DNA from: Phoronis australis
Lineage: Eukaryota > Animalia > Phoronida
Assembly (NCBI GenBank): GCA_002633005.1
Contig: NMRA01000336.1
Location: 205,836 to 269,835 of the forward strand
DNA: 64,000 bases
Direction of reading: 5' to 3'
A program made the position numbers and the translations under genes. Below the pieces are notes generated by a model, which saw nothing but the letters and a program-made list of their open reading frames with translations, made no database searches and was not told the DNA's origin. Positions 1 through 48,239 of this stretch are shown in pieces (positions within the stretch are counted from its first letter, which is position 1; each line of letters begins with the position of its first letter).

Positions 1-895
1 GAAATTTGACAACATTTGAAAACATGAATACCTCTTATGTCCAGAAAACATTACATAGAGGTATGGAGATAAGCTTTTCTAAATGAACTCTTAATATGTC
101 TAATTAGTCTAATGATGTCATTTATCTACAGCTAGATGACACCACAAGATTAACAGAAGAGGGGAATCTTCAGGCTGACAAAGTTCATGAGACAACAAGT
201 ATGACTGCTTGCAAGATTGTTGGCAGTGGATTAGTATTCTTCAAAGCACAAACAGGACATAGAAAGCTGGAGTTAGTGTCAAGCAAGGTTTAAGTGCAGA
301 ATATAACACAAAACAGTTACTTGTGCGATTAAATCGTGCATGCATCCTTTGGAGGGTCCCTCAGCCAGGCATCGTCATCATAAGTGGGCGCAGCTTGGTT
401 AGAGGTTACTACCTGACTAATGATGGATCAGGTGGCTATAAACAATGGATGGACTAGAGCGACGTCAGATATCCACGTCTTAAACTTCTATTTATCAAGA
501 AAAAATATCCGTCAGTCTGTACACATATATTGGCCACAGGCCAACCTGTGATAGCTACGGCTGTGAACTGAAGCCAGTCTTCCCATATGGTATCTCATAC
601 TGCACTATCCATTATGATCCATCTACAGCTTGATCACACATGAACAACACCTTGCTATCTCTGAGTTTGTTGGTGCCTCATTAAAAGGTGAGTAAAAGCA
701 ATGACAAGTGAATATCTCTACATACAGTTAGGTACACTGTCTTTAAAGTCAGGTTAACGACCTTGACAAACTCTTGGCCTTGTTCTCATTCTGTTTAGTT
801 AGAACTATCATCATCAATATTGGCTTTATCACCATAGAGTATTCTTAAATTGCATGTCAGTCCTTTCCAACAATTATCTACTTTGGACATGTCTT

Positions 896-2164
896 TTAGA
901 AACTACTGTAAGCATTGCCCACGTTCTTCTCTTGTTTACCAAAGAGAAATTCTTTATGTTTCTGTTCCTGGTGTAAGCTTTGGTAGCCATGTAAATGTTT
1001 AATGTCTTTCTTAAACTCCTGTCCATAGCCGTTCTTGTCCAGATGGTATTGCACTAGTGCTGCGGTGTCAACTTTCTCAAGATGTCTCCTATCAACCAGC
1101 TGTTCATAGTCTTTCAAAATCTCTGGATTCCAACTACTTTTTTTAGTTTGTGAATTGTTTAAGTTTGCCACATATCCATCAACAGGTTTCGGGTGATAAA
1201 ATCTAGAGACATCTACATTTTTCCCCTTTAAAACATTGATACCATTCCGTGATTCCCTATGTTCCTTCAACTTTGATTTCCGTACAGCCTTTAAGTCCTT
1301 GGCTATATTTCTATACTGTTCCTTGTACTTCCGCAACCTTACTTTCTGCTGGTGCTGCTCTCGATAACCTTCAGGAACATATAAACTTGGTAAGCTACGG
1401 TGATTGATTTTATCTGTTCTCTTCTTTTTGCTTTTCATTTCCTGTTGACCATTGTTAGAGTGTAAATCCTCAGTTTCCACACAGTTTCCAATATCAACAC
1501 TTTCACAAGATAACTCCTCGTTAGTTTTCACAAACGTCTTCTCAGTTACAAGCTTTGGTTTTGTTGGCAAACTGGCATATCGATTTTTCTTGTTTGCAAC
1601 TATACCTTGCCCCAAGACACCAGTATTTTTCACAGTGAGATGACCTGTTCCTTTCTTCATATTTGAATCACTTATTTCAGATTTTAATGAGGAATTCGAA
1701 ACTTCTTGATTCTTTACCTCCTTGTTCATTTTAGTTTCTCCAATGCTTACATCGCCATTGTTGCTCTTAACAACATCTTTATGAACAGGGCGGCCATTTT
1801 TCCTACTGCCATTTTGCGGTTCTTCAATTATCACATCTAGATTTCTGTGGCATGCAACAACAATATCCAGTGGCTTAGCTGTATCATTTTTTGGTTTTAC
1901 ACCTATACCATCCTGGTTTTCGATGACTTGGGTTACATTGTTATTATGAGAACTTGATTTTGAAACTGCGTTAGAGTCAGATTTTGCAGCACCAACAGAT
2001 TCAGCTAGCATTTTCACCTCGGCTACTTTCTTGTTAGAATGTGTAGCAAGGCTTTTTGTCTGTGCTTCTATAGCAGAGCTTCCAGTATTCCACGAAGGTA
2101 GACAATTTTCTTTTGAGGGAACTATTTTAGATCTAGCATTCCACTTTACAGGAAAATTGGGTAC
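896..2164 (-). CDS. MAPT-like: Tau-like terminal coding exon (422 aa; starts with degenerate repeat VPNFPVKWNARSKI, then a long K/N/S-rich basic tail)
   Basis: atttcaag|GTACCC phase-0 acceptor, in frame with ORF 896..2017. Stop TAA at 898-896. Confidence 0.82.
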   Translation of the reverse strand, partial: VPNFPVKWNARSKIVPSKENCLPSWNTGSSAIEAQTKSLATHSNKKVAEVKMLAESVGAAKSDSNAVSKSSSHNNNVTQVIENQDGIGVKPKNDTAKPLDIVVACHRNLDVIIEEPQNGSRKNGRPVHKDVVKSNNGDVSIGETKMNKEVKNQEVSNSSLKSEISDSNMKKGTGHLTVKNTGVLGQGIVANKKNRYASLPTKPKLVTEKTFVKTNEELSCESVDIGNCVETEDLHSNNGQQEMKSKKKRTDKINHRSLPSLYVPEGYREQHQQKVRLRKYKEQYRNIAKDLKAVRKSKLKEHRESRNGINVLKGKNVDVSRFYHPKPVDGYVANLNNSQTKKSSWNPEILKDYEQLVDRRHLEKVDTAALVQYHLDKNGYGQEFKKDIKHLHGYQSLHQEQKHKEFLFGKQEKNVGNAYSSF

Positions 2165-5100
2165 CTTGAAATAGCATAGGGACTACATGAACAAAGTAGC
2201 ACAGCTATAAAGACCCAGGTGACCAGCATTCGTGTTCAACCGTTTCAAAGTTATCACAAGAAAAAAGTTAACTTTGACTCAAACACAACTGAAAGATATT
2301 TTGCAGGCCTGCAGTGATTCAATGATTTGATGGCAACACTCTGTGACAAATGATTAAGACACCACAAAACTGATTGCTTTGTATAACAATGACACAAACA
2401 CAAAGAACTGACTAAGACTTCAGAAAGTATAATATGTGCCTCAAATGAAATCCCGTTCAGAGATAAAAGAAGAGTCACAGTATTTGTTACATGTCTTGTG
2501 AAATGTGACATTTACTCCTGACAAAACAATCAGGCATGTCAGAGATCAGATTAATTTACATCTGAATTTGGTCTCATTTACAATAAATCATTGTTTACAG
2601 AACATTTATCAACCTTTCCTTTGAAGTGATTTGAAGTTCAGCATGACAGCTTGTGCAACATGATCAAAATGTACCAAGGATTAATTGCAAGCAACCAAAC
2701 TGGTCATACAAAAACATATATATTAATGAAATCGTGCCACTCAAAATGAGGCAATAGTCACTTGCGGGAGTCCTGTATTTTGAGAACCAGTTTAGCGCCT
2801 GTTATTCAGTGGAGAAAACTGATTCTCAAAATGCAGGATTCCTGTAAATGGCTATTACTCAAAATCATAAAATGCACATAGGCATGCAGCTTATAGTCAA
2901 TCAGGTTTGGGTAAGAATTAACCACGCAGAAATGATGGGTGTTGTGTTTTATCAGTCATGCAACAGGGAAGGGAATATGATTGTTGATTTTATCAAATTA
3001 ATAGGGCAAGCTATCCCAACATCCAAACACTTCTCATTTCAACAATTTTATGTTTGTAAATCCAGACAGTGTCTCATAAAGTAATGTTACCTTCTTCTCA
3101 CCACCCCCAGGAACATGGTTTTTGTTGTCACATGACCCCACTTTCGATTCGGCTTTCCAGTCCAGTTTTATATTCTCAATCTGAAGGAAACACAAAATTC
3201 TGACAAACCAATTACCATAATGCAATATTGATCATTACAAATTAGTACGGCTCCACAAAAATGAAAAGAAAATTTAATGACCCTTGATATTATTTGAATT
3301 TCTGAGCAACAACATTAAATTTGTAATTTTGTTTGTCATAAATTTGTTGAAACAAAAATACTTATTTCCAAATCATGTCCTTGGAGCAGGTCAGTTGCAA
3401 TGATCACACCACTGACAGTCAACACCTACAAGCACTTTGCACACCAATTAAATCATGTCGATTGACAAAAACACAAACTTCACAATTTAAAGTAGACCAC
3501 CTGTCACTGTCTTTGCACACTCCACATATGCCTCCTTGTGTTGAAGCATTACCTTTTTATCACCACCTCCTGGAATGTGACCTTGGTTTTTCAGAGAGCC
3601 AACTCTGGGTTCTGCTTTCCATTCTAATTTCCTATTTTCTATCTGTTTTTAAAGTACACAAAAGAAAAACAAAACGTTAATATTAATAACGTCGTTCTTC
3701 ACATGAACTTTTCCATCACCGTACAAAAATACAGCATGGGTTTGCCAGACTGCGGTAAGACAATTAGATAATGAAATGTACATCTTAACTACGATTTCAG
3801 AGTTAAAATTTTCTTTTTACCAAACTTCAATTTCACTTGTCTCACGTGTCATTATTTTGGTAGTTGTTAAGTGTTTGTGTAAACTAAATTAAATATCAAA
3901 CATTTATAAAATGTCAACACTGTTTTGCACTTTCTCCATATTGCCAGACACATCCATCTTTTGTATATTTAGTTAAAATTTTAATGTTGGTGCCACATAA
4001 TGTCACCAATATGTAAGTTAACAAAAGCAACGTAGAGCGTTGACATGCACCCAGAGTGTGCATCACAAACGGTAACATTATAAGGGATCAATACTCCTTT
4101 GTTCAAATATTTCCATGATAGTCAAATCTATCCAAAGTCATCATCAGTTGTGCTCTCCTGAAGGTGCATAGGTTAAATTTCACGAAAACTCATCAAAGCA
4201 CTAAATAAAGGTAGACAATTAACATTTGCTACTAGAGAGTGCCTTTCTAGTCAATAATCAACACCATCCATGCTTTCTTCAAAATGAACAAATATGCCAA
4301 ATTTCATGAAGATCCTTCAAAGAACTTCATAGATATTGGCACAGAAACAAACAATGAAATTGCCACCACAAGATGTCACAGCAGCCAGATGTGTCCAAAA
4401 ACACTTATGCTCTGCTCAACAGGAACAGATAAGCCAAATTAATGAATAGTACAAAGAACTCTGTCACTCCTGTCAGTAGTAGACATTGGCCCACATGTAA
4501 GAAAACATAACTAATTATGACTAGTAAGCACCACAGTAGATCAGTCTGAATCTTTATGTCCACCATACTCTTCTCAGTAGGGACCCATCTACCACCTTCC
4601 ATTGTGACTCTTCCAGCAATTTGACAAATGTCAAAAACAGACATGAAAATAACAAAATTAGCGGCAAGAGGTATAATAGGTCGAATCTGATGAAACAGGG
4701 TAGGTTTCATCACTTCCTTCCCGGACACTTGTTTGCCAAATTTGGTGAAGATCTATCAGTTGAAGGAAGTTGGTAGACATTGAGGCATACGCCAAGAAAA
4801 CCTAAATCAAGATGAGGGATGTCGTTCTTGCCCCAAAACCATAGTCAGGAACACATGCTATTGAAAGTCCAAAAGGTCATGTTGATGTTTTAATAGAAAC
4901 CTATTTACTGAAATACTAAAAATATCAGCTGAGCAACTTGGCAGATACTGATGCAAATGCAAAAAAAATAACTTCCTACAGAGGGAACAATGACATTCAG
5001 ATCTGCTGGAAACTCCTCGCCATCAGTTGTCAGCTTCATAAAAACATAGCTGCCAAATTTCAGATCCTGCGAGGGTTTAGGTCTTGCAGCAGTACACACC

Positions 5101-8100
5101 TGATGCCCAGACCCCAGACAGAGGTTACGGCAATATGCACCCACATACTTGTAAGTATATGAGTAAGTAAAAGAAAGATCTGACTGAAAAGAATAAAATC
5201 TACACAAAATTCAACACGTTATGAGAATCTTAAATAAAAACACTTGTGCAAACTTCTTAAATCTACACTATGAGTGGGATAAAAGAATATTTTAAGTATT
5301 AAAACAACTGTTCTTATCTTAGTCATTGTTACCTTTTTGTCGCCACCTCCAGGTGTATGACTTTGATTCTGGAGAGAGCCAATCCTGGCCTCAGCTTTCC
5401 ATTCTAATTTCTTATTTTCTATCTGTTATTAAGATACATAAAGAGAAAGGTGTTATGTGTATAAAATATCACGGAGGACAATACCTTTATCTATTGACAG
5501 TTAATTATAAAGCAAACTGGGTGAATACTTTCAAGCATTGTTACTGCGACGAAAACGTATCAAGTTACAAGAATTATGACAGAACAGATAAATCTCTCTT
5601 CATGTAGAACTTTTCGTAAGAACATTTAATGATCATTCCTCTTGGTGCTCTGGGATAATACACAAAACAGGCATGCGGGAAGCAACTGATAAAATGAGGG
5701 TTTTTTACCAAAAAAAAACAATGAACACATAAGGTAGAATAGGAACAGTCAACCCCAATGTCCATTAGACATACCACTGTATTGCCCCCTCCAGGCATGT
5801 GATGAATGTTGGCTTTAGAGCCACATTTAGCCTGGGCTTTTTCCTTGAAATCCAACTTGTGAGTCTCGATCTGCAGAAAATAAAACTGACTTTTGCAAAC
5901 TTTATAAATTCAGGCTTTGGTATCCGGAATTTCTGAAAATCAACTCCAAAGATGAATTATTCATAAATTGGCATACCTTTAGGGTTTCTAGCACACCAAA
6001 AGACAATGTGCCATTACGTTTTCAAAACTAGGACCTCTGCCCGGTTTCATGAAACAGTCCCAAATGGTAACTCAACTAACTTCCCTAAATCTATTGTGTA
6101 TTTGTGGACTTTCATGGTGACTGTCCTTTCTCATACAGACTTTTTTCAGTTTTAATTCTGTAGTCAATAAGTTCAAACAAGATTAGACGGGCGGATCTGG
6201 CGCATTTTCACTCATTTTCAATCGTTCTGCGGTTGCACTTTGAACGGGAAGAGAAAATGGCATGAATTTTTGCATGTGGATTCCTTAAAGTATACTCTTT
6301 CAAATGTTCTGCAACAACGTTTTTCTCAGACTTGTCGTTTTCAAGTTATTCGACTTTGAATTTCAAAAAAAAACGCAAAATTTCAATTTTTTCAAAAAAT
6401 TTACGGAAATTTTGTGAAACTACCAATTTAGATAGAGCTTTGAACAGGCTTTCAGAAGATATTTTTCATTTTTTGCTAGGATGTCTACTTATTGAATTTT
6501 TATTCGAGATTTTCTGACAGCACTGTTCCTTTGATGAGCCCTCTTGCTGCATGGATGATGGTTTAGCTTCTATTGAACAAGACTGTAGCCTATTTCTTAC
6601 AGATTTATGACATTAAAGTTCGTCATATGAATGTTATGATGTTCATCATCACCACTATCATAATATTCATCATCTTCGTAATCATCTCCGCCAACGTCTT
6701 TTCAGTTAATTTCGCCAAGTGTCGCTCAAGACTGTAGCCCATTTCTTACTGAATTCTGACCTCTATGTTCGTCATATGAATTATCATTACTTGCATTGTT
6801 CACCATAACCACCATCGTCGTCATATTCATCATCTTCGTCATCATCTCTATTGCCATCTTTTCTGTTAATTTTGCCAAGTTTCGCTACTTGGAGCGCTTT
6901 CATTTTTTTGTTCGTTCGCACTCTACAGGTAGTAGTTTTCGTCCAATCCACACGAAATTTATACAAAACTTGTACTTTCAGAAGCAAAGAAACCCCAATG
7001 TTTTTCATCATAATCAAATCCAAGATGGTGGATGTGGCGGCCATTTTCTTTCAATTCCAGATTCAAATGCTTATAGAGGCCGTAATTTTTGATGTACACA
7101 GTTGAAAATCAGCACAAAAATTGTACAACTTGTGTGCTACAGATGTGGAGGAAATTGTTCATTTCCAGTCAAAGATGGTGGAAATATCTGTAATTGTGCA
7201 TCCACACCTCGATTTTGGGCAAAAAAGGCTTTCTCGTGTAGAGGGCGCATTACATCACCAATTGCTTCAAAAATTTTCAGGTATTAGTTTTCTATGCCAC
7301 GTTATTATCCAGTGCTGTGTAACCGGAAGTTGCGGATCTGACGCAATTTGACCCATTTTCAGTCGTGCTGGAGTACCATTTTAAACCGGAAAAAAATGAT
7401 GTGAATTTTTGCATGTGAACTCTCTGATGTATACCCTTTCATATGACTAATAACAATTTTTTCTCAGACTTATCGTTTTTGAGTTATTTGACTTTCAATT
7501 ATAAAAACAACAAAATTTGATATTTTTTGCGAAACTATGTAGTTAAATAGAATTTTAAACGGGCTTTCAGAAGATTTTTTCCATTTTTCGCTAGGAGGCC
7601 TACTTTTCAAAATATTTGAGATTGTCTGATAACGCTGTTCATTTGTTGACCGATTTTGCTGCGGTCTAGTTTCTAGTGATCAAGACTGTAGCCTATTTCT
7701 TACTGTTTCTGACATCTTCGCCAGTCCTATGAATGTTATAACGTTGTTCATAATCGCCACTTTCATCATCATCATCATCATCATCATCTCCATCGTCTTT
7801 TCAGTGAATTTCGCCAAATGTCACTCCTCCGAGCACTTTCATTGCTGATTTATTTTGGAACAACCAGGGTGTTTATTGCCAAGGAACAACCAGGGTATTT
7901 ATTCCCATTAAGTACAGCGTGAAGTAGCTCAACAGTTCAAAAATAAATTAAGCTTCAACAACGGATTGCAGTTCTTTGTAAAAGCGCAAACTTAGATTTC
8001 TTTCACTCAATCTAGAAGAAAAAAGTTTACCATTTTGTTTCCACCTCCTGGAGTGTGGTTTATGTTTGCCTTTGATCCACACTTTGGTTGGGCCTTTTCG

Positions 8101-11100
8101 TTAAAGTCCAGCTTACGGGTCTCAATCTGTTTGAAATATAAAACACAGCCAGTTACGTGAAGCCATCAATGAACAAAATGTGCCAGCAGCTGAATGTAGA
8201 GCATTCCAGACACAGGTGGATGGAACAAAGTGGAAGAATCCCTCGATTTGCTTTAATGGCAAGTATGGACAAAGATATTACAAGCTGGAAACGTCTCTTA
8301 TAGGCCTCGCTATGCTATATGTTTCCTTAATGCCAGATAATCCCTGTTGATGCTAACCCTGATATCCATAACACATTGTGCAGCATTTAGAAAGTGAAGT
8401 GAGAGGCTTATGAAAAGAACCATTAGTTCACCTGTACGTCTGCAGACAGCTAATGCAACAGGATGTGTATAACTTGTGAATGGTGGAATTCCTCTTGGGC
8501 AAAGCAGTCATTTACAAACTTTGGTAGGAAATCACAAACCTGCCGTGACTATTAAACCACATCTGTGAGAGAGTATGTGAGCCTAGTACCCCTCTCCCAA
8601 GGGGGTTTGGTGGCCTGCCTTATTTTCAGAAATTGTCATATTAATCCAAATATTGACCATTTTATCATCATCGGCTCTTTTGCAAAACGCTCTTGAGTAT
8701 AATCAAGAGGACATGTGTTAGCATCCTTATTAGGATTCCTTGTACACCTTTTCGTTTTTGAGAAAGCACTAGCAGTTTGTCAGTTGGCAAAAATGCTAGG
8801 ATTTTAGGCATGCTGGCAGAGATGCCATTCACCAACAGGGCACTTCTGCAAGCAGAAGATCAAGCACATTCATTTCCTGCCACAAACTCATCAATGTGAC
8901 GATAAACAAACTTAAAGCACACATGTTTCTTTGAAGTTAACAGTAAAGTTACAAAATTGAAAAACAAACATGATAGGAGATAACATTGTCACTTTTTTCA
9001 GTCTGACATCATTCTTTGTAACTAATAAACAGATACTAAACTATTGCCTGCAGTAGTAAACATGTTCATGCATGGTTTCTGTGAGAACAAATCGGTAGGT
9101 CTTATTAAACGTGCGAGTGGACATTTTTCTTTTAAAAATCACGCAAGACTGGAAGAGTCCTTACTTCAACCACAATACTTACAACTTTATCCCCACCTCC
9201 CGGTGTGTGGTGTAAGTTGGCTTTAGATCCACACTTAGGCTGTGCCCTCTCTTTGAAGTCCAGCTTGTGAGATTCAATCTGCAAAAAACAAAATACGAAT
9301 TGCTTTACGATAACATCGACAACATTGTGGCCATAACTAGATAATCTAGCATCAAGAGAGCTCGGAGAATCATCTTTTAACTAAATCTTTGTCTGACATA
9401 ATTGTAAAACCAAGATTTTCATGTTGAAACAATGGAAGCCAAAAACTCTTTAAAGATTGAGAAAAATCTTCAGTGCATAAAACTCTCAGATGTGACAAAA
9501 AATCAGTTAAATAAAATACATTAAGTTGAATATAATGATGTTGAACATAACTGTCACTGACATGAGCCAACAAGAAACCAGGGACCCAGACTAAAAGTTA
9601 GGAGCCCAGATTTTTGTAATGATAGCTACGACAATCAGGCACATGAATTCCCAAAATGAACAGGGAGTCAGATCCTAAATCTAAGTACTAATATCATCCA
9701 TGGACGGATCATTGACTTTGAGACATAATCTGGTCTTTCCAATGCTGTCAAATACTTCATTTTCAATAATGGTAGTACCATAGTACTGCCTTGCATATTC
9801 GGCGTACAGCGTCAATCATGATTCGTCTCCGCAATCACAGTCAGTCGTTAAGAAACAATCACACAGTCATCAAAAAAATTCATTACCTGCAACAGAACTC
9901 TAAGGAAATTAATGAAATGTTGGAATATGTGCTTCATTTTGATGAAAATACTAAACATAATCATTATTTCTAAAGAATGGAAGCAGCACTTCATCACAAA
10001 ACAACAATGTTCCGAGTGCATAGGTTTACTTGATGGTTACAAACGCTCAATGTGTACCCACTCATGAACTAGAAGTCGGTCACTCTTCCAGTCAAATGTT
10101 TTAGTTTCTTGTCATAGAATTTCACCGAAAATGAGCAAAATCATAAAAGATCGTTTCCTCTTTACAATGTTACCAAAGTCATAACCTGCATGGTCTCCTA
10201 CTCAGAAACCGTCAATCGGGTTTGCACAGCCTGGCTGTGAACTCATTGACAACTAAACTAAATGTTAAGGTGAGGAAAGCTCTCAAAATTCAAACGGTTA
10301 AAATTTGTCTTTTTTGTCAAGGCCTCTCTTTTGGACACTGTAATTACATTGAAGTATGGTTGCTCATCATTTCAGGTACGACCATCGATCCATTTACGTA
10401 GGCCTACTAAATAAAGTTAGATTTAAGATCCGCGACTCCAGCGACTTCAGTGAAATCATGAAATTTCAATTTCTATTATGATGTGGCTTGCAGCTGTTAT
10501 TTTTTAACTGGAAAATTGGTGCATTTCATGCCGTGGGTGTTCCGTGTCGGTTAGCGGATGACCTGTTCACCATCCAAGAGTTTCAAAACGGTCGAGCAGG
10601 CTTGTTTTCTCCAATGGTGTGAATTAATGACAACAAAACGCCATGGAATGTACTGAACAATTTGTCACCTTCATCTCTCTATCTCCGCTCAGTGAGCAGA
10701 CATTTTAAGTTTTGATTGACCCACATGTCTTTTAATTGGCCTATATATAGCTATAAGCATGTGTATTTGCTGTGACTGATTATGAGACTTTGTGTTACAT
10801 GGCAACTGTTGCCACGTTTACTCAAATTTGACTTTGAAATTTTTGCGACACGGTCGGATATAAATGGAAATATATCGAATTTGCCCAAATATGGTTGTAG
10901 TATTCCCATGATACGCCATTTGTCAAAAAGATATTAAATGTATTTACTAGGAAAATACTCCATCACGTAATCAGGTTACTTCGCTTGTAAATGTCAACGT
11001 GATTTCGTGAATATGTAGAAAACAAGCTATTGTTTTCTACATATTAACTAGGTCACCAGTTGGGTGACATAACTGGTGAAATTTTGGCACTCGGCTAGTA

Positions 11101-14100
11101 ACTTACTCGTCTTGGGTGACAGCTAACGTATATCCCTGAAGCGCCACCAGGGAGTGCACAAGTTCACCCCTCGCAATTAATGACTTACCTTAACATCACC
11201 ACCTCCTGGCACATGGCTGACATTTGCGCGTGAACCCACTTTGGACTCAACCTTCCATTCCAATTTGCGAGTCTCAATCTATAAGAAAAATGCAGCCCAA
11301 AGCCCAAAGTTATCACTATTGCACACTTTCAATTGTAGAGGCACACTTCCAACAAGATTTTAAGAATAAGGCAAATGACAGCAAGTAGTGACAGGATAAA
11401 CAGTAACAAGATATAATATTCTCCCTCTTTTTCTTCAGTTAAAGGGAGTTTGACAGCGATTCATCTATCAACTTCCAAAACATTTTCACATGTATTCTAA
11501 TATATTCCCAATCCAGATTTTAAGGACCACAGATGTGCTCAGTCGCAACAACCAAACCTGCTTACACAAACTTCACCTAAACAATTGAATCTGAATTTTG
11601 ATCAGGAAAACATCAAGGTAAGAAAAACAGCTCCACATCTTCACACAAATTAGATTATGTTTGTGAACCATGTCCCTTTATGACAGTTACGCACCGTTAC
11701 CGGCTGGTCAAAGCTTAATTACACTCACACCAAGGAATCAACACTGAGGTGAAAGTCTAGTCTGTTTTGCTACATTTGAAGGTTTTTAGTGAACGTATTT
11801 CATACAAACCACACCTGTTTCATGACATTTGCTGAAAGTCATTTAAAAATAGGATTTTTATGCGCCCACATAAGTGGTAGCATATTGCCGTCATCTCTGT
11901 CTGAGCGTCCGATGCCCAGGAGCTGTGTCTCCTAAACCCCTCACAGGATCTTGATGAGATTTGGAAGACGGTGTTTCTAATCTATTAAGCTGACGACGGA
12001 TGACAACAAATTTCAGTTTGGGCCACCTAGAGGCCCTTTTTACTGTTTTCGAGTCTGATTTTGCTGTCCGCCCCTCTATTAACCAAACCGCTTTGAAGAT
12101 GATTGTGAAGATTGGCATGTATGTTATTACTATAAAAAAGATAGCTGACAGTGATTTTCCGACTACTTTGGCACCTCCTAGTGGCAGTTTTGTTTTTCTG
12201 TGCTCATGGCTGTATCTGATAAACTGTTTGCAGGATCTTTACTAAAGTTAGCAAGTGTATTTGTATGATGTTGGCAACAGACGACAATGACGTTCGCACG
12301 GATCTTTCCACCAGTGTGCTCCCTAGTGGCAATTTTAGTTTTTCACATTTACCTCTGTATATTCAAAGGTCCTCCACAAAGTTTCATAAAATTTGGAATA
12401 TAGGCATCTACCATTTTCACATACATTTGAGGCCACCTAAAGGCCATTTTTACTGTTTTCAAGTCTCTTTTTTGGCGTCCACCCCTCTATCAACCAAACC
12501 ATTCTAAGGATGATTTTGAAAATTTCGGGTGTATATGTTCTCAGTGTGAAGAGGACAGTTGATGATGAAGACTTCGACTACTGTGGCACCTCCTACTGGT
12601 GGTTTTGTTTTGTTTTGTTTTGCGCTCATAGCCTACTGCAGGATCTTTATTAAATTTAGTAAGTGTATTTATAGAAAGCTAACAATAGACAATGACTTGC
12701 AGGCAGCCCCTGTGCTCCCTAGAGGCAATTTCATTTTTTTCTGTTTTCCTTTGTTTCTCTGAAGTTCTGTGTTTGATTTTTATGAAATTTAGTAAATAGC
12801 ATTCTATTGAAGAAGCGACAGCATGTTCTGTTTTCAGATGGATAGGACATTTCGCACTATAAGTGGCTATTCTTATGTTACAAATATACAACTCTTGAAG
12901 TACACCGTTGGCGGTGCATTCGTGGGCGCATTTCAATGCTCCACTTTGCTCTTGTTAAATATCAGTTAGTGTCAGATGCACAGTTCACAATATTATGCTG
13001 GATTACATGAGCTCATTACAGTGTTCTGTTCCTTTTCCAGACGTGAGGGGTGCTGAACGTGCGATAAAATCTGAATCTTTTGTTAACTGCCCATCTCAGT
13101 CTTTTGTCCCGTATGATAACAAGCAGGCCAATTATCTCCCAGGCTTCAATGGAAACGTATGGAGGTTGCACGCTATTACCGAAGGCGTATGAACACAGTC
13201 AAACCCAGTGCGTCCATTTGGATAGAATAGATTAACTTCTGTTGTAGTTGGGCGATTTTGGGGATTCAAAAACGGAACATGATCAGCATTTGATGAGGAA
13301 TTCAGAAACACTATTGGTTTAAGCTCAAATATGTTATAACTTAACTTTCAGTTTTATCAGCCCAGCCCAGTAAGTCTAGATACGATATGATCGGAGATTA
13401 GAGCAATTATCGAACAAAAGAGCGCAGGCCCTCCAACCATAAATGCCAGAATGGAGTTAATCAGTCGAGTAAAATATTGGCTACAGAGGTAAACTTCCCA
13501 ACTTATTGTTGGGCTATAGAATCAAACAAGTTGGGAGCAACGGGATGTCGCCATCATGTTATCAGATGGAAGCAGTCAAGAGAGCTGGACTGTGTAAACA
13601 TTGGTTATTACACTGTCAAACTGAGAATGACACAGCTGTAACCCGACTGGCCAACCAGTCAATCGGAATACTCAATCCACTGCGCGGGTGCGTAACGCCT
13701 TTGACTTGCCGACCTCAATTAAATTGCCCAAATTTGAAGACAATATCTCAGACATTCCTTAGTATTGACTAAACAAGACTTGCAATGTGACCATGGCCTT
13801 TGACACAGTACGACGTCAACTGAACTCAAAGGGTAATCCCCAGGTGGGCATCAACCTCCATACCAAGTTTGAGGAGGGTATTCCAAGCATTCATTAGTTA
13901 TTGATCCAACAAGATTGTCTTGACATGTTATGTGACCTTGACCTTTGACCTTGTAACCTCTTAATTAATAGCCGTCTACATGTTAGTATGAACCTCCATA
14001 CCAAATTTGAGAACCATATTCCCAGGTATTCTTGAATTATTGATGCAACATTTTCATGGGCAATGTTTAACTTACCTAAGTTTACATTTCATCCTGAGTA

Positions 14101-17100
14101 ACCTCAGAATCTTCTACAGGTCGTAATAAAAATTAATCAGCATAATACAGTTTATGATCACCCAATTTTAGAACGACAGACCGGCCAACATGTACAAATC
14201 AATCTATGCATCACCTACTGGCAGGCAAAACTATTCAGGATGGATACACCACACATTCTTCTAAAAATAATGACATTCTTGCCTTGCTTTCTAATGCAAT
14301 GGCAAAACATTTATGTCCAAGAGTAGACACTAATTAGAAAATTAGGTTTTCCACTCCAAGGTGATCCTAAGTGACACCTCCCCTGAAATGCGAGTATTGC
14401 AAACATTCTTCAGTTTGGAACGTAATGGCAAACGGGTATTTGAAAACTGAAAAATGCATGCCATTTTTAATTATTTCTCCCATATAAGGAAAACTTTTAA
14501 CCTCTGATCTGTCTGTCAGCAGCATAACATGTTCATCTCATTTACACTAAAGTCTCAATCAGACTGTTTCCATGCAGGGACATTTTACCCGTCAGCTTTA
14601 AAGAAAAAGCTTCCTAATTAACATTCATATTAATTGAATTTTATGCACTTCTTTGTAATCAGAATTTATATTGTTTAAATGGTTTTTGCTTAGTCTTTGC
14701 AATTATTCCCATTAAATAAAGATTTCATAGCGTGCAATGTTACAGTGCGATACTAAAAAGATGATAAAGCCTGTCTTGCCTTTTTGTCTCCACCTCCAGG
14801 TACATGGTTAACTTTGGCTTTAGATCCCAGTTTAGGCTGCACGCTTGTGTAGTCCAACTTGCGAGATTCTATTTTTACCTAAATACAAAATACAATTCAC
14901 TGACAATGAACATGTCAGTAATCAAACACCATGGTGATAGCAGTTAAGGTGTTCACTGGACCCTAGAAAAATATCCAAATTTGGCTGGTTGGATTCAGTG
15001 ACACGTGAAATTTTCATACTATCCTTTAAGCATTGTTCTACAAAACAGCAATTGTTTTCAACATTCTCTATTTTAAAATGAGGGGCTTTCAAAAACAGGA
15101 CTTTTATAACATTCACGAAAAATCTTAAAACTTGTACAACACGAAAACGAAATATTTTTAAGCCTTCATCTTGAACATTGACATCAAACAAAATTTGGTC
15201 ATTTTTTAAAAATTGCTGATTTGTTTTGGAAAGAGTCTCCCCTTTTTTGCTAAATCTTACTTAAAATATATGGTAGAATGACTCAATTACTGGCAAGTCA
15301 AAGTCAAAACTGAAATTCTACAGGCTTTCTAAAGTTTTAGAATGTAAATACTTTTATTAAATTAAAATCTTCTGACATGCAGATACTTAGCTAAATACAC
15401 AAAGTTGTAGATAAGATCCTATATAGAGTTAGATTGAGTTGGGGTGAGCAAATCAAAACAGACTCAGAAATATATGTGAATAAATTATGAACTTGGATAA
15501 ACAATGTTTAAATGATTGGAGAGTCAACATAGGCAACCCTATTAGATGACCTATAAAACGACACCCTTGGAGCAACTGATGCAGTCACATAAGGGTAATG
15601 TATGGTGAAATGTTAACCCAGCAAGTGGTGCACTATAAACAGGAGAAATGGAAGAGGTATGCGTAATTTTCAATAATGTTGACAGTGGCACAAAAAGTTA
15701 ATTGTTTGGTTGGTGACTTCTGACCACAGTTTTTGCTACCTCAGTTCTCATTTGGTGACCCGGGTTTTTCACCGAGCCGCATTTGGCAAATTGGTAAGAG
15801 GCAAAAACTGGTATCAGTGTTTTGGTTTTATTTGACATTTTCATTCAAACATTTACCATTCCACCACTATCATTTACTATACAACTTATGCAATGCGTCA
15901 ACTTTAAACATAACATTTTCATAGCGCCAACTAGTGATAAATTCAATGACTTGCACATCAATCTTCGATAGCTTCAGTGTCCTCCTGGTTGCCGAACAGT
16001 TCAACTAACTTTGCAGTTTACATCAGTGCTACTCTGGTACTGCAATTAAGTTGGTTTTATAAATCCTTTAGACTCACTAACATGGCAGGCAGTATAACAC
16101 CTCAACATCTTATACCATTGAAGAAAAACCACTTACATTTCCTCCCCTGGGTGTATGATTGACATTTTGAAATGAGTTAATCTTTGATGACACATTTTTT
16201 ATATGTGGAGATCTGCCAACAGATGTCGACATGGCTGTGGCTGGTCGGGGACCTGCAAGAAGAAACGAAATATCAACAATGAAGTAGCAACATTGCAGTA
16301 CTGAGAAAACAAGTGAACAAGTTACTCAGTGCAGTCTGGCAAAAGGCAGCTACCAAAGTTTATATATTTGTAGCTTACACATCACTAGTTGTGTTGATAC
16401 CAGTGTATCAATGTGTTGAATATTGAATTGATTGAATACATGCGACTGATCCTGTAGTGATTCAAAGGCTGCAAAAGATCTAGACATTGCTATTGAGTCT
16501 CATTGTCATCGTGTTGAAAGATTTCTTACTTGTAACAGGAGATTCTGCTTTCCTCGGTGATGGTGTCTTTTTAACAGATGACTCGATCCTCGGTGAGGCC
16601 GACTTGACTCGTGATGGTGTCTTGCTTGCAACACTTCCTGGTGGACGTATACCGCTGACCTTAGGAGTTGACTTCTGATTGGAAAGAGAAACCAACATCA
16701 AACGGATCACACTTAGCACTTGATAAATTACAACAAAATATCAGAATATATCCTTTGATATTTCATCTTAGTTTGAAAATATCTTAATGAAGTAAATAGT
16801 GAAAGATTTCTGCAGAATTCTATACAAACTCATAGTTGCTAAGTATTGCTGTTTTCTTTAGTAACACAAACGAACATGCTAGGCACGTTTTGAGAATGCA
16901 ATTAATGGGATAGTCACTTATAGAAAACTTTCATTTTAAGAACCAGTTCTTTCCAATGTACAACAAGCATCAAACTGGTTCTCAAAATGCGGGGTCCAAT
17001 TAAGTGACTATTGTCAAATTACCTTTTTCAAATCTTTTTCTTCCTCAACGCCACTGTCTAATGATACATCTGAAATGTTAATTAAACTTTCGTGAGAAAG

Positions 17101-20100
17101 TGTGATCCATCAATTTATAACTGTTACTGCATACTTGTTCCACGATACCTGACAATGGTAGTTAATCACAATGGGCAACACACAGAAAGGAAACTTCTAA
17201 AAATGATTCAACATGTTATACCAAAAAAATTAATTTTATGTAAGTAAATGTGTGTGAAGCAGCACCGAGATGGTGATTTTTAAACAGCTGATCAAGTGCA
17301 GCTGAGCAATAACCTCAAGATTGGCAGTTTTGAATCAGTTTTATTCAAATTAGGTATCAACTTAAGTTGCTTCAACTCCAGTAATTTTGCCAAGCCATTA
17401 GTAAACTTAATCTTGGCACAACAAAACCAACAACAAATTGAACCAGCATCACCATGACGATTTTTCAAAATCGACCTTAGTTCCACAATAGTGATGACAT
17501 GGTACTGAAAGCTGGAGGAAACACAGAAAAGGCCTGTAAGGACCATCTGTGTGTCCCTCTTTGAGATTCAATGCTACAAAATTTTCTCCAAGATTGCAGA
17601 GTTATAATTAGAACAGAGACAAATATTATAAGCCACCTGGGGACAAAGGTTTACAAGTGATCATTTTATGGTTTCTCAAAACTGGAATAATATCATAATG
17701 CATGAAACAGGATACCTGTCAAGAATACCAGACAAGATTATAGCATTTTAATGCAATCCTCAACCATCCACAAAATGTTGTGGCACAAAACTGCAAATAA
17801 TCAGCTTGGTGCTTTTTGCACGTCTTTTCAGGGTTGCTATCCCACAATGCACTGCTTGTGACCAGTCATTTTGAGAAACACTAAAATGGTTAATAAGAAA
17901 ATATAGAAGCAATTGTTGGGGAATTAATTCAGAGGTACTAATAAACACAAGGCGTGCATTCCGTAGATACAAGGCATTTGCAAGACAAGTTAGTGTAATC
18001 AAGGGCTTCACCTGTAATGCATGACAATATCTCGCGAAGGCTATATAATATGTGACTTAGCTTTCCTTGCAAAAAAGTTGCTCTATGAAATGCCACCCAT
18101 GTCACATGTTGATGGGAAAGGAGTCTATTACGGCTAGGGAAATAAATTTTAGAACTGTGGCACTTGCATGGTTATACATTGAATAACTGAACCTGTAAAA
18201 CACTCTGCAACACTCAAACAAAAGACATGCTAATTAGTCTCTAATGAAGGCAGTGAACAACACAACACACTCTACAAATGGTGCAAAATCAGTAGTATAT
18301 AAACAAACGAAGACCTAGAAAACAAAATAAACCATGAAATTCAATAAAGTCCACAGAGTTGAAATGTCAGTCAGAAGCCTTGGTCATTGATCTATGCCAC
18401 CAGAGTATATTACAGGTAAAATTTTAAGCTTTCGGGAGTCTTAATTGAATGTACTGGTCATGTATACACGATATTGATCCTAATGACAACATTTCTTGTA
18501 AATGAGTGTATACCAAGTCATGTTATATATAGCATTCTCAACTCTTGTGCATTTGACACGTGACTGACAGTTCAATTGTAGTTAAAGGACTGCAAAGCAA
18601 TGTCTTTTATGTGTAATTTGTATGCTGCTGAAACAACCATGTATCGTATCAAAGCTCATCAATGCACATAAGACTGAAATGCCGGTGAGTTTTTATTGAT
18701 CACCTTAAACAAGGCTTTGCCACAAGCACGCAAAATAATAAAAAAAGAACATCAGCTACAGTAACGATATTCCACCTTTCTTTCTTGGTGACGACTGCTT
18801 AGCAGAAGTCGTTTTGGATGAGGCTGTTACGATCTTCGTCGACTTGATATTGACTGACGGTTGGGCAGACCTAGTCCTTGGGGACTGCTGTGTCTTAGCA
18901 CGAGGGGGTGCTTCCTTTTTCAACTGGACACCCACTTTGCTTGACTGTGATTGGCTAACAGATTTTGAGTTTGCTTTCAAAGATTTACTCTTGAGAGTTT
19001 TGTCAGTGGATATGTCTGACTTTCTCTCGGGACTTTTTGAACTTTCATTTTCTGTAAAAATGGTTGGAACATGACTGACGCTAGGTTCAGTTTGTCCTCC
19101 GATGCTCTCATCAACAATCCATGGAAATTGTGACATTTTTGTGTCACCTGTTGGTACCTCCTGAGCAACAGACTCAGGAGGTAGCTCAAGATCTTCAATA
19201 AATATGGGAGGTTCAAGGGGAGGGGGCTCTATATCTTCTTGATGAGATTTGTCGTCTTTTGCCTCTGCAGTTTCAGCTCGCATCAATGCAGTCATGACAA
19301 GGTCATGTGACTCATCTTCAATACTGTTACTAGATAATGACTCTTGCTGAGCTCTCGTTTGACCAGCCATTTCATTGGCTGGAGGTTCAGGCTCATCATG
19401 AACAAAAGACTGGGCCACAACATCACTGTAGGCAAATGGCTCAGGTCTAGAGGATGGATGTAGTTCAGAGAGCGTACTTTTGAGGTTGTGTTCCTCACTG
19501 GACAAAACAGCTGATTTTATACATACAGAAGAGTCAAGTGTGTTCTCATTAGCTGGAAAACCAATGTCAATGGCAGCAAGAGTTTCAAGGCAACTGCTTG
19601 GCTGCTCAGGTTCTGAACATGGAAGTTTAGCAGCAGGTTCACAACTTCTTGATGTGGGATACTCATCAAGGATGTTTAATCCTTGCTGTAGAGTAGGTGA
19701 AGAGTCAGCTAACTGCACATGTGGATCAGTGATAAAGGGATTAGTATTCACAGGACCAACCCTGTGTAGGGATGAATCCAAGGATTCAATTTCACTCACT
19801 TGTGTAGCAACTAAGGGATCACCACTGTGGACAAAAGGATTAATTCTCACAGTGTCAACAGTCTTGAAGTTAGACAAAAAGTCAAGTTGTGGCTCAGATG
19901 TTTCTTCTCCATGAGCTTCATATTGTTGAGACGGTGGAAATACACCGTGGCCATTTGCTAAGAGTTCCAGGGAGTCTTGCTTAGCCTGGGAGACCCCAAA
20001 TGGATTCTGGTTTGGCTTAGGCGTGGTGAAATCTAGCAAAAGATCGTCATTGGACTGAGCAATATCACTGTCAGATGATAGTGCTTTTTGTGAGGGAAGT

Positions 20101-20685
20101 GCTAAGTTTGGAGAGAAAGGATCAAAGTCAAAATCTTGTGAATGCAGGTTCTCCGATGGAGCATTCATGGAGGCAAAGCTGAAGGGGTCATATGGATCAT
20201 TTTGGATAACCAGAGCATGGGTACCAGTGTTCTTGGTAGCAACCTCCTCTACAGCCGCCATTTCATCTAAAAAGAACATTATGCAGTAACATTAAACAAT
20301 TAGTGAGTGATCTAAATTCAAACCCATATTATCCTAAACTCAACTTGGCTTGGGATTAGGTGCATGTGCAGGTCGCAATACAAGATAATTTGAGAAAGAA
20401 ATTCGCTGTAGAACATTGAGCTCTTACTGCCTCCAAATAAAGCCGTGAAGATGCAGAACATTTGCATAAATGTTTTTGTATTTTCAAACCCTATTCAAAA
20501 GTTATTGATGTGGTCCAGTTTTGTTTCTAGTTCTGACAGGCAACAATGGAAAAAGCACATCTTTGAATGGCTTATGAGTGGCATGATAACAACACCCTTT
20601 CCCAAACCAAAGCACTTCACAAAGCCAAATCACTAGATTTCCACTGCATATCTGCATGTTATACCCTCTTACCTGATATGTTCAT
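896..20685 (-). CDS. MAPT-like: Tau/MAP2/MAP4-family microtubule-associated protein, 14 coding exons, ~1275 aa, 9 microtubule-binding repeats. Join: 20685-20673, 20266-18776, 17069-17023, 16674-16530, 16252-16137, 14878-14780, 11278-11189, 9278-9183, 8126-8031, 5870-5775, 5422-5333, 3642-3553, 3180-3091, 2164-896
   Basis: Nine K/RxGS..N..H.PGGG-type repeats read on the minus strand, each flanked by an AG acceptor and a GT (once GC) donor. Exon lengths sum to 3828 nt with no frame break. The layout is acidic N-terminus, S/T/P/K-rich region, repeats, tail, as in tau/MAP2/MAP4. Confidence 0.93.
2753..2856. mobile_element. ~104-bp palindromic MITE (copy 1)
   Basis: AATAGTCACTT..ATTTTGAGAACCAGTTT / AAACTGATTCTCAAAAT..AATGGCTATT inverted arms. 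A related copy lies at 16910-17012. Confidence 0.7.
3091..3180 (-). CDS. MAPT-like: Tau-like repeat R9 exon (IENIKLDWKAESKVGSCDNKNHVPGGGEKK)
   Basis: ccttcag| ... |gtaaca; 90 nt; visible in ORF 3034..3225. Confidence 0.95.
3553..3642 (-). CDS. MAPT-like: Tau-like repeat R8 exon (IENRKLEWKAEPRVGSLKNQGHIPGGGDKK)
   Basis: aaaaacag| ... |gtaatg; 90 nt. Confidence 0.95.
4020..5150. repeat. Decayed HINE/Helentron-like repeat fragments
   Basis: Starts AACAAAAGCAACGTAGAGCGTTG (short hairpin). Recurring TGCCAAATTT(C/G)ATGAAGATC-like modules near 4295, 4735 and 5051. Confidence 0.3.
5333..5422 (-). CDS. MAPT-like: Tau-like repeat R7 exon (IENKKLEWKAEARIGSLQNQSHTPGGGDKK)
   Basis: aataacag| ... |gtaaca; 90 nt. 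Confidence 0.95.
5775..5870 (-). CDS. MAPT-like: Tau-like repeat R6 exon (IETHKLDFKEKAQAKCGSKANIHHMPGGGNTV)
   Basis: ttttctgcag| ... |gtatgt; 96 nt; partly visible in ORF 5574..5855. Confidence 0.95.
6190..7845. repeat. Intronic non-autonomous TE with internal tandem duplication (~1.14 kb period) and (ATC)n tracts
   Basis: GCGGATCTG.CGCA.TTT block at ~6191 and ~7332 with a colinear ~500-bp continuation. CAAGACTGTAGCC.ATTTCTTAC occurs three times (~6579, ~6727, 7681). Confidence 0.75.
8031..8126 (-). CDS. MAPT-like: Tau-like repeat R5 exon (IETRKLDFNEKAQPKCGSKANINHTPGGGNKM)
   Basis: tttcaaacag| ... |gtaaac; 96 nt. Confidence 0.95.
9183..9278 (-). CDS. MAPT-like: Tau-like repeat R4 exon (IESHKLDFKERAQPKCGSKANLHHTPGGGDKV)
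   Basis: tttttgcag| ... |gtaagt; 96 nt. Confidence 0.95.
11189..11278 (-). CDS. MAPT-like: Tau-like repeat R3 exon (IETRKLEWKVESKVGSRANVSHVPGGGDVK)
   Basis: cttatag| ... |gtaagt; 90 nt. Confidence 0.95.
11855..12956 (+). mobile_element. HINE/Helentron-like non-autonomous element with ~410-bp internal tandem unit
   Basis: TTTTTATGCGCCCAC 5' end with its inverted copy GTGGGCGCAT at 12922-12931, ending CTTGTT. Internal duplication GGCCACCTA.AGGCC.TTTTTACTGTTTTC at ~12022 and ~12431. Confidence 0.6.
13771..14232 (-). mobile_element. HINE/Helentron-like element with ~135-bp GTGACCTTGACCTTTGACC tandem units
   Basis: Starts AAACAAG. Two units, each with a GACCTT module and AACCTCCATACCAA.TTTGAG. 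Confidence 0.55.
14780..14878 (-). CDS. MAPT-like: Tau-like repeat R2 exon (VKIESRKLDYTSVQPKLGSKAKVNHVPGGGDKK), GC donor
   Basis: gtatttag| ... AAG|gcaaga; 99 nt, phase 0-0. Confidence 0.92.
16137..16252 (-). CDS. MAPT-like: Tau-like exon with repeat R1 (SPRPATAMSTSVGRSPHIKNVSSKINSFQNVNHTPRGGN)
   Basis: tcttgcag| ... |gtaagt. Resembles tau R1 [24 protein letters not shown]. Confidence 0.92.
16530..16674 (-). CDS. MAPT-like: Tau-like proline-rich region exon (KSTPKVSGIRPPGS...KAESPVT)
   Basis: ttccaatcag| acceptor and |gtaaga donor. Several SP/TP sites; 145 nt, phase 0->1. Confidence 0.88.
16910..17012. mobile_element. ~103-bp palindromic MITE (copy 2 of the 2753-2856 family)
   Basis: ATAGTCACTTA..ATTTTAAGAACCAGTT / AACTGGTTCTCAAAATG..TAAGTGACTAT inverted arms. 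Confidence 0.7.
17023..17069 (-). CDS. MAPT-like: Tau-like 47-nt micro-exon (DVSLDSGVEEEKDLKK)
   Basis: catttcag|ATGTATC...AAAAAG|gtaatt. It converts phase 1 to phase 0, which is exactly what is needed to join the flanking exons. Confidence 0.82.
18776..20266 (-). CDS. MAPT-like: Tau-like large acidic/disordered projection-domain exon (1491 nt, phase 1-1)
   Basis: Corresponds to ORF 18756..20279 (507 aa). Acceptor ctttttag|AT, donor AAG|gtggaa. D/E/S/P-rich, turning K/S/T-rich at its end. Confidence 0.88.
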
Positions 20686-22775: not shown

Positions 22776-25700
22776 GAATCATTAAAAAATATGTGACAAT
22801 ACAATGTGCAAAGGAATAAACGTCACAATAATATGCAAAGAAACTCACAGATCATTCCACAGTGTTGCCAGATGAATGTCTAGTCCCTGAACCTTAATTA
22901 CACACTGTTTCATGAAAAAGGCACATGACCTTTTCACATACTCACAATGGCAATTTATGGAGGATAAGCTTACAATCCATTTCAAGAGAATGGAGCAGTG
23001 TGAATATCAGGTATTATTCTCCACAGCACCAGTTAGGAGACGAACAATAAATTATGACAAGAAGGGGGAAATAAATCAACAACAGTCACCTTGTAAACCA
23101 AGCTTGGTTTCAGAATCAGCCATGCGATGCGATGCAAGTATGATCCAAATAGCCTCCTGATAAGGTCTCAGAACGCTCAGCCACCGAGCAAGCAAAAAAT
23201 TGTCCTTTTTGTAGTAGCACCTGGTGAAATTGGCCAGGATTTGGTTTCAATGAGACTTCTGTTGCCACTGACCAAGACACCTTCCTTTCACACAATGACC
23301 CTATGAAAGAGAATATTAGATATTGACATTGATTTGTGAGGCTCTTAACGGGCATCAAGCATCATTGCAGCACATTAAATAAGACACTATACTACCAGCA
23401 TGAAAATCAATGGTAAGTTTTGCAGTGGCATATGGCTGAAATGGCTGCATGGTAAAATAACACAATGAGAATGTTTGCAAAACTTAACACATTCAGTCAA
23501 CACACTTATCAGCCAAACTCCAATGATTATGTTGAATGAATTAACATTATTTAACATTTGTGGTAAACATTGTTTCACAAGTAAGAAAACTTGTCCTTTG
23601 TAGTGTACAGTCCTGTCCACACACAGCCTACTCAAAAACAACTTGCGCTAGTGCCGCAACTTCACCCCACTTTTGAGTGGAGCAGCCACACTCACACACT
23701 TATATACCATAACTGAGGTAATGCATAAGTTGTCGCTCTGTGCGTGATAATAAACAGCTGATGTGAATACAAGGCGCAAAAGAAGGACTTAAAGTGCCGC
23801 AAGTTATCTTAGAGCAAGTTACCCCACCTCGAAAAGGTGGAGTAAGTTGTCCCAAGTAGGGCATGTCACACTAGTTAAAAAAAACATCCACACAGCCACT
23901 AAACCTGACAAACATTCCAGAAGTAACTTGTTCTTGGGTAAGTCTGTGAAGCCCGCTGACCATTTACTGTCCACCATAGGCTTATCGTTATGTGCAAATT
24001 ATGGCCCATGCAACTTTTCACTTTTAAATTTTCAAAATAGTTAATTAGTTAAATTGAATTCATGGCAAGGTCCACCTTTTTGTAATGGACAGTATCACTC
24101 ACACAACATTTAATTACCTCCTCCTAGGGTTTACTAAAGCACAGTACAGGAAAAAGTAATCAGACAAAATACCATTTCCCAGTCATTATGGCTTATTATG
24201 TTTACAGCAAAAAGGACAGGTTATGACCACTAAAGTGGCAAAATTCTAATTAAAGAACACCTTTCCTATTAAGATCCCTTCATTCTCAGTCATGAGGGAA
24301 GGGTATTCTGATGATTAATTCAGCTTTCGCCCAGCCATCATGACAGGAATTCAGCACCATTTTGTCTGAATATTTTTGTTATGGACTGTATGTCACATAC
24401 TGGCAGTTCCTGATTGCCGATAATTTTTTAGGTCTTAATACACGCATTTAGCAAAATATAACAAATGTATTTAAGGAAATGTCAAGAACTTGAAAACTGA
24501 AAAGCACTGCTGCATACCTTATTTGGAAATAATTAAGAAAATGGATTTAATTGTCAGCCATAGTGAGTACTGCAAAACAGAAAATTTCGTGGTGCTTTAT
24601 TTGGACATCAGTTGGTTTTCAATTAATTTTAATCGATGACCATAGCACTCAATTCCCTCAAGTTCATATTTGTTTAGGAATCAAAGTTTGTAAAACATCC
24701 TAATTAGAAATTATACAGTTGCCCTAGGACGAAATCAGACAGACCAGGTATACACACGATTGTTAGCCTCCTCGTTGCAGTTACCATCTTATATATAAGA
24801 CCAGAAAAAAATGCATTTCCCAGTGGATTCAAAGCTTCAGTGTTGCCGAAGCTTCGGTCAATGGGAAAACAGCGCAAGTTAACTCTGAAGTAAAGAGATC
24901 GACTTAACAGGGAAGCGTTGAGCAACATTTCGCTACAATGGAAACACTTAACTTCAATGCTGTCGGAGTTATCGGCAAGGGTCAATGACTGCGTTTGGCA
25001 ACAGCAGGCAGTGACTGCTTACTATTTGTTAATATTTTGGTCTAGTAATTATTATTCTGGCAGTATAAGCATTCTGTTTCAATTTACCCAATGTATTTGC
25101 TGGAGTCTTTTTTACATTAAACAAAACCACTGAATGTGTAGTGTACGTATACCACGGAATGACGCCATTGTTTGGATCAGCTGTCAGTATGGTCAAGAGT
25201 CAATTTTTTTAATATCAATTTCTTGTACATCATCATAGTCCCAATGTGGCAACCATCGGCTGCCTTGTGAAGTTGACGTTCTAGTTTCCACTTGAGAAGA
25301 GGGAGAGGTCCTTGCCATTTTAGATGGCAAGCAGTCAAAAGCACCAAGGCATATGACTGCCACAAATATTAGCGCCGCCTTGTGATAATTTCCCTGAACA
25401 GTAACTCCAAAGCTGATGGGAACACTAACCCTTAACTTTGCGGTTAACAATATTTAACATCGAAGCTTTGCTGGTAACAAAAGGGTGAACTGTGTGGGAA
25501 AGGGCTCCAGACAAAGTTGGATCTGGTCTTCACCCCCCTCACATTTTGAGATCTGTGCTATCTTACTACAATTAATGCTGACCTGCATCAATATCAGCCC
25601 ATGACTCTTGTGTTTTCTGTCATAAAACCTGCTCAAAGACACATTCAACAAGGTTAAGCAACACTGAAATTCAAGGATTTGCCAAGTGATGAATAAAAAC

Positions 25701-30300: not shown

Positions 30301-30680
30301 AAACAGCATTAGAAGAGCTTACCTGCTGTGTTCTTGGTGATCTTCTCGAACAAGGCATCGTAACCAAGTTGGCCGACAACTGTGGTGGGCAGACCCCAAC
30401 TGAACTACTTATTACCAATTGGGAACTGGTACTTTCTGCCCTTGCTACGTCTGGTCTACATTTGCCACCTACCAAAACGGTCATTCCCCTCAAGCGCGCA
30501 ACTATCCTGGGTTGGATATAGGAAGGTGGCACCCTTCAGGCTAGCAGTCATCACATCACTTCGCTTGCTTCGTGCAACAAGCCTACAACCGTGTGTTAGA
30601 TGCATTCTGGTGGCTGTTCGATGAAATACAGACGTTCATGTAAGCCTAGTCGTCTTTTATTATTACTGGCGATTCACACA
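27396..30680 (+). mobile_element. Degenerate, internally deleted Ty3/Gypsy LTR retrotransposon (gag, protease, RT remnants; partial LTRs)
   Basis: Termini TGTGTCATTCGCCA ... TGGCGATTCACACA. Shared LTR segment GCTGTTCGA.GAAATACAGACGTTCATG at 27461 and 30613. gag-like ETIKSFDNWKNNITYFLSLDPNF, protease-like LECGATGNMI, RT-like [37 protein letters not shown]. Many stops and frameshifts. Confidence 0.88.
27560..27745 (+). mobile_element. Fragment of an RLE-type (HERO/R2-superfamily) non-LTR retrotransposon endonuclease domain
   Basis: DLDIYSDSSHQVILIELTIPWDSRVEEAHERKNLKYADLRNDCHVNGWRC matches the PD..IELTVPWE....AHERK..KY..L pattern of restriction-like endonucleases. Confidence 0.8.
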
Positions 30681-48100: not shown

Positions 48101-48239
48101 CCATATGCTTTCTCTGTTGTGTCAATACAACCCTCATGAAACTTGTTAGCAAAATTTATGGCCCACTATAGTACATGTATGTAATAGTGAACATTTCGAA
48201 AATATATCTTGAAGCAGTTAACGAAGAAAATGAAAATGA

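Follow-up and report, generated by a model that had tools for sequence, protein, structure and literature searches.

The nine repeat exons

A window of 64,000 nucleotides from the phoronid Phoronis australis (GenBank assembly GCA_002633005.1, contig NMRA01000336.1, positions 205,836 to 269,835 of the forward strand; coordinates below count from its first letter) was analysed, and a real, spliced gene of the tau/MAP2/MAP4 family with nine predicted microtubule-binding repeats was confirmed on its minus strand. A six-frame motif scan located tau-type repeat ends at nine minus-strand sites, from 16.2 kb to 3.1 kb, and inspection of splice sites showed one repeat per exon throughout. Exons R2 to R9, of 99/90/96/96/96/90/90/90 nucleotides, are every one of phase 0-0; their acceptors are AG and their donors GT, with the exception of R2, which has GC. 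This is in exact agreement with an earlier note on this DNA, in which a nine-repeat tau-family gene with these exons had been read from the letters alone. Against Pfam family PF00418, all nine repeat exons passed the gathering cut-off of 27 bits, with scores of 28.4–59.6 bits. A hidden Markov model (HMM) profile built from the nine repeats recovered the same nine in a six-frame scan of the whole window at 48–62 bits, the runner-up scoring -0.7 bits; thus, the signal is not due to chance. The top sequence matches in the PDB were tau structures, with 6CVN leading.

The nine repeats share an unvarying Ser, His, Pro and Gly-Gly. K/R-x-G-S is found in eight of them; R1 has KINS at this site, and PRGG where PGGG is the family type. 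Four repeats are of the Trp type. In nucleotide sequence, exons of the same type are closest to each other, and the closest sets, R7/R8 (81% identity) and R4/R5/R6 (71–75%), likely mark duplications. The coordinates of all exons of the gene model are given in Table 1.

Table 1. Exons of the gene model in 5' to 3' order of the gene (nt, nucleotides; phases and PF00418 scores as determined in this analysis)
Feature	Positions	Strand	Length (nt)	Phase	PF00418 (bits)	Remarks
Predicted first coding exon, ATG	23090..23123	-	34	0-1		sequence evidence only; model stays open with it
Predicted large acidic projection-domain exon, weak donor	18776..20266	-	1491	1-1		frame-preserving; stop-free open reading frame of 511 residues; no Pfam match
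Predicted linker exon	17023..17069	-	47	1-0		AG/GT sites and frame; no listed junction
Exon 4, basic Pro/Ser/Thr-rich linker	16530..16674	-	145	0-1		donor RNA-confirmed to R1, 4 reads; acceptor predicted
Repeat exon R1, KINS replaces KxGS	16137..16252	-	116	1-0	28.4	acceptor RNA-confirmed
Repeat exon R2, GC donor	14780..14878	-	99	0-0	46.9	R2-R3 junction 7 reads, ends CT..GC
Repeat exon R3, Trp-type	11189..11278	-	90	0-0	49.1	acceptor RNA-confirmed
Repeat exon R4, KCGS	9183..9278	-	96	0-0	57.0	R4-R5 junction 11 reads
Repeat exon R5, KCGS	8031..8126	-	96	0-0	58.6	both ends RNA-confirmed
Repeat exon R6, KCGS	5775..5870	-	96	0-0	59.6	R5-R6 junction 12 reads
Repeat exon R7, Trp-type	5333..5422	-	90	0-0	46.6	R7-R9 junction 5 reads, two runs
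Repeat exon R8, Trp-type, absent from some RNA	3553..3642	-	90	0-0	41.0	R8-R9 junction 3 reads, run X2
Repeat exon R9, Trp-type	3091..3180	-	90	0-0	49.5	acceptor confirmed from R7 and R8
Candidate last exon, basic open reading frame of 422 codons	896..2164	-				start faintly like a repeat; may be one of several last exons

RNA evidence and the remaining exons

RNA data were taken from three runs of raw reads (X1, X2 and X3) of one study of the same species, 18–19% of each being used, and from one contig run; the listing of a junction required 3 reads from 2 starts. Mapping at 97% likeness spans positions 850–16750. Mapping at 90% likeness was dominated by intronic repeats, and no junction of the gene was present among the joints listed there (15 of 201). 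Such interspersed repeats, at about 2790–2850, 6040–7810, 11900–13550 and 16950, attract thousands of RNA reads from their other copies.

At 97% likeness, coverage of the exon-bearing bins was mostly in the orientation of minus-strand RNA, and the junctions exon 4–R1, R2–R3, R4–R5, R5–R6, R8–R9 and R7–R9 were obtained, with the read numbers of Table 1. Each of the nine repeat exons is supported by RNA at one end or both. The possibility, raised in the earlier note, that several of them are pseudo-exons was ruled out, since all nine have junction support at at least one end. Four of the eight adjacent repeat joins (R1–R2, R3–R4, R6–R7 and R7–R8) were unlisted, which means numbers below threshold and not absence; of the 28 skip junctions that are possible, a single one, R7–R9, reached the list, and depth was low. 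Seven junction reads back the GC donor of R2 at 14779–14780 on the minus strand, and no skip of R2 was among the listed junctions; the second-repeat exon of vertebrate tau is regulated, and the weak GC donor of R2 parallels it.

RNA depth was about 1–6x per exon and uneven between runs. In X1 and X3 the depth bin of R8 stayed empty whether reads were mapped at 90% or at 97% likeness; X2 gave about 4x there. All reads joining R8 to R9 came from X2; those joining R7 to R9 were found in X2 (2 reads) and X3 (3 reads), and the difference between these two runs was not significant (Fisher p = 0.20). The R7–R9 reads had 45–57 nucleotides on their short side, and R7 and R8 differ at 11 of the last 45 and 14 of the last 57 letters (about 25%); mis-mapping between R7 and R8 as the source of this junction is therefore unlikely at 97% likeness.

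Upstream of the repeats, the donor of exon 4 is the one splice site with RNA support, the first three exons being without a junction. The 14-exon model, from 23123 to 896, stays open for 1282 codons. The large acidic exon had an RNA depth of 0–0.49 and no listed junction in the mapping at 90% likeness. Predicted net charges are -52 for residues 1–400, +21 for the linker preceding R1 (40% Pro, Ser or Thr), +25 for the repeats and +24 for the tail. The order of domains would thus appear to be the usual one of the family (acidic projection, basic Pro/Ser/Thr-rich linker, repeats), the long tail excepted, and the protein is expected to be disordered. The acidic exon, which can be skipped in frame, resembles the optional large exon of "Big tau"; isoform X11 of Haliotis likewise does without about 900 N-terminal residues.

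Downstream of R9 lies the open reading frame of 422 codons, which is far beyond chance, since the longest one in 500 shuffles had 127 codons. Its first 20 codons or so are the "degenerate tenth start" of the earlier note: the likeness was located there, but it amounts to 1.5 bits against the repeat HMM and is without a Pfam match, and so may suggest a faint resemblance to a repeat only. Gene-strand RNA depth over this frame was 0.08–0.57 in X1 and X3 and zero in X2, where R7 to R9 are covered; an alternative last exon, perhaps past the edge of the window, is thus possible. A junction from R9 to the tail was unlisted in the mapping at 97% likeness under the threshold given above. The frame had no homologue of similar or greater length, no Pfam match and no BLAST match to the fetched homologues, which are weak negatives for a region of low complexity; the best atlas match had a value of 0.76 and is a lead only. 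A search of the window by tblastn for the usual pseudo-repeat last exon, with the tails of ten homologues, gave nothing significant among the matches listed. The predicted tail past the last repeat would have 425 residues here, against a median of 68 and a maximum of 173 among the best 120 of 7224 homologues. Nine may be neither the count of every mRNA nor the full repeat count of the gene. If joined to R9, the candidate tail of 422 codons would be a small new variant, and it is the remaining unexplained piece of the locus.

Elsewhere in the window, broken retroelement-like reading frames were noticed at 27900–30520 (+), 38260–41120 (+) and 47841–48155 (-). A Pfam scan of fifteen other open reading frames of the window found zf-RVT at 40468–40836 and RT_RNaseH at 47844–48155 and no other domains. 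Frames of 90–129 codons at 51651–53355 (+), without a Pfam match, may be exons of another gene.

Relatives and the possible range of repeat choice

Homologues were compared as the best 120 of 7224 matches of a profile search (75–2000 residues, ranked by score, mostly fish); this ranking favours long arrays and can show that nine repeats are often reached, not that they are typical. By one HMM rule, 84 of the 120 have six repeats, 26 have seven, three have eight and seven have 9–13, the last being two from Haliotis/Mercenaria (9) and those of Nucella (10), Clavelina (11), Lingula and Strongylocentrotus (12 each) and Lytechinus (13). The idea of nine repeats as a record was rejected accordingly. 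All 12 lophotrochozoan proteins among the 120 carry Trp-type repeats and none of the 108 others does, and the closest matches of R3 to R9, among eight species compared, were those of a nemertean and an abalone; both results make a lophotrochozoan source likely. A protein labelled as that of the glomeromycete fungus Racocetra fulgida (P0008) has eight tau-type repeats; long arrays are thus not limited to animals.

For isoforms, the clusters of 10 invertebrate matches were examined. Seven of these contained at least four named isoforms and were analysed; the other three, of one or two members each, were set aside, as were five short members lacking names and a protein from a different abalone species. 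In all seven species the isoforms differ by internal deletions of 30–31 residues or multiples thereof, which can be placed in register with the exons described here. Repeat counts by HMM range from 4 to 13 in Lingula, 4 to 9 in Haliotis rufescens, 7 to 10 in Mercenaria and 10 to 12 in Clavelina, and a motif rule differs by at most 1; these isoforms are mostly "isoform X" predictions of the NCBI, and near-identical repeats can mislead such models.

We consider it highly probable that the locus holds a tau/MAP2/MAP4-family gene, transcribed, spliced and likely of lophotrochozoan type, whose nine repeats probably go back to tandem duplication of an exon holding one repeat in frame, whose product is a predicted lengthwise binder of microtubules, and whose repeat number is probably varied by the skipping of some exons such as R8. 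Such skipping would most likely be restricted and affect exons in blocks, with a preference for R7 and R8, the recent duplicates of Trp type, and not amount to a free 256-way choice. A symmetric exon holding one repeat could be duplicated or skipped without a change of frame, and since it keeps the frame, arrays would be able to grow and shrink in many lineages. In human tau, the R3 and R4 exons are not known to be both of phase 0-0. By homology, the predicted placement of the protein is lengthwise on a protofilament, which it would stabilise, each repeat taking up one tubulin dimer while the acidic region projects outward. By analogy with cryo-electron microscopy (cryo-EM) of tau, a repeat would reach across tubulin dimers for about 8 nm, so that nine repeats would span about 70 nm of protofilament and omission of one would make the footprint about 8 nm shorter. 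Such an omission may alter stability, bundling or access of motors more than bulk binding, and dropping of repeats would be expected to change these properties as in 3R/4R tau and 3R–5R MAP4. The exons, their phases, membership in the Pfam family and six junctions, one of them without R8, are direct results; the history of duplication, the attribution of the skip to splicing and not to a deletion allele, and all that is said of protein function are what we infer from them.

Several points weigh against this explanation. The RNA depth is low and comes from three runs of a single study; the coverage of R8 in one run only would fit a deletion haplotype as well as splicing; half of the adjacent repeat junctions are unlisted, and the nine-repeat mRNA was assembled by inference, no single read spanning the whole. 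Moreover, 4R and 5R MAP4 bound microtubules at an equal ratio (P = 0.436) according to Shigematsu et al. 2018 (PMC6279373), and thus repeat number need not be a simple dial of affinity.

The R8-less data are compatible alike with skipping, with mutual exclusion of R7 and R8, and with a haplotype without R8; alternative splicing is the likely cause. A haplotype lacking exon R8, with repeat number differing between individuals and all other exons constitutive, would agree with the distribution of R8 depth over the runs, with R8 being the youngest-looking duplicate, and with the presence of both joins in X2, as in a heterozygote or in pooled animals. It appears improbable, since in seven of seven relatives isoforms annotated on one reference contig differ by deletions of single repeats, skipping of the exon-10 type is the norm of the family (PMC6279373), and X2 and X3 do not differ significantly in their junction counts.

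Equally doubtful is the proposal that R7 and R8, as tandem duplicates, exclude each other, in which case mRNAs would hold at most eight repeats and switch the flavour and not the count. R7–R9 and R8–R9 are both listed while R7–R8 is not, and R6–R7 is unlisted despite 12 reads for R5–R6, as if the reads from R6 were split over two acceptors; however, the R7–R8 intron of 1690 nucleotides gives no steric exclusion, the frames are compatible both ways, and "unlisted" means fewer than 3 reads, R1–R2 and R3–R4 being equally unlisted.

The earlier note had proposed a splicing dial from 1R to 9R with 2^8 theoretical combinations. Its premise stands, inasmuch as the exons are frame-neutral and the skip from R7 to R9 was seen; the wide dial itself goes beyond the data, with a single one of the 28 skips listed. 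In its regulated form, with most phase-0 exons skipped independently by tissue or stage, it may draw on the frame-neutrality of all eight exons R2 to R9, on that one skip, on the isoform sets of Lingula and Haliotis and on the uneven depth of exons between runs. Yet the best-supported joins, R4–R5 and R5–R6, are adjacent ones, most of the large deletions in relatives take out contiguous blocks, and R1 (phase 1-0) cannot be dropped alone, so that we regard this, too, as unlikely. Less probable still is a two-way dial, in which independently skipped repeat exons set the number of tubulin dimers spanned (at most nine) and a lineage-specific basic last exon of 422 residues, without a known relative, is chosen alternatively; if true, its isoforms would offer a natural series in which to test the control of microtubule stability and motor traffic by repeat number and tail.

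Comparison with known systems

High repeat counts, duplication of phase-0 exons and isoforms of different repeat number have each been published or annotated in relatives already, and the gene is an ordinary member of its family. By itself it matters little; its usefulness is comparative. The many-repeat invertebrate genes could serve as a natural series from 3R to 13R for the question whether repeat number acts on affinity, on bundling or on exclusion of motors, which is usually tested over 3R–5R. Among the top 20 titles of each search of the literature on evolution and splicing of the family, most subscription papers lying outside the search, none was a functional study of invertebrate tau isoforms with many repeats.

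The earlier note had set the repeat count against those of human, fly and worm as unusual. This did not hold: Gottschalk and Hefti (2022, PMC8985376) give 7–10 repeats for some mollusc microtubule-associated proteins (MAPs), and relatives reach 12–13. The comparison with lophotrochozoans, on which the note had made novelty depend, largely removes it, although the average of these molluscs is 5 and nine repeats are at the high end. At least seven repeats were reported for four of the 16 mollusc proteins of their Table S3 (10, 8, 7 and 7); the protein with ten, K1QDY2 of the oyster Crassostrea gigas, has a high count like the gene described here. The comparison with that source is one of counts and not of exon phase or splicing.

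Closest in kind are the lophotrochozoan tau-like MAPs of Haliotis rufescens (LOC124115086, XP_048238296-305), Lingula anatina (XP_013401991-402034), Mercenaria (XP_053408664-684) and Tubulanus (LOC141906646), which have PF00418 arrays of 6–13 repeats. Their exon structures are inferred from isoform deletions alone, so that likeness to the exons here is one of register only. They share Trp-type and KLDFKE-type units with the gene of P. australis and differ from it in the order and number of repeats.

Sündermann et al. 2016 (PMC4815063) ascribed fish MAPT genes with 5–7 repeats to internal duplications of one exon between phase-0 introns, and placed non-vertebrate members of the family apart from the three vertebrate genes. 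In teleost MAPT one exon, that of the second repeat, was multiplied, whereas the gene described here has eight repeat exons in a row, of two or three types, every one with phase 0-0.

A cryo-EM preprint (10.1101/267153) models the repeats of tau in tandem along the protofilament, about 80 Å each, with the serine of KxGS and the His of the repeat in contact with tubulin. As stated in PMC6279373, all tau-family MAPs vary their repeat number by splicing, with a count of 3–4 for tau and MAP2 and of 3–5 for MAP4, and the 3R–5R forms of MAP4 differ in bundling. Human tau, MAP2 and MAP4 have the repeat motif in common with the gene described here, and probably also the setting of repeat number by splicing; they hold fewer repeats.

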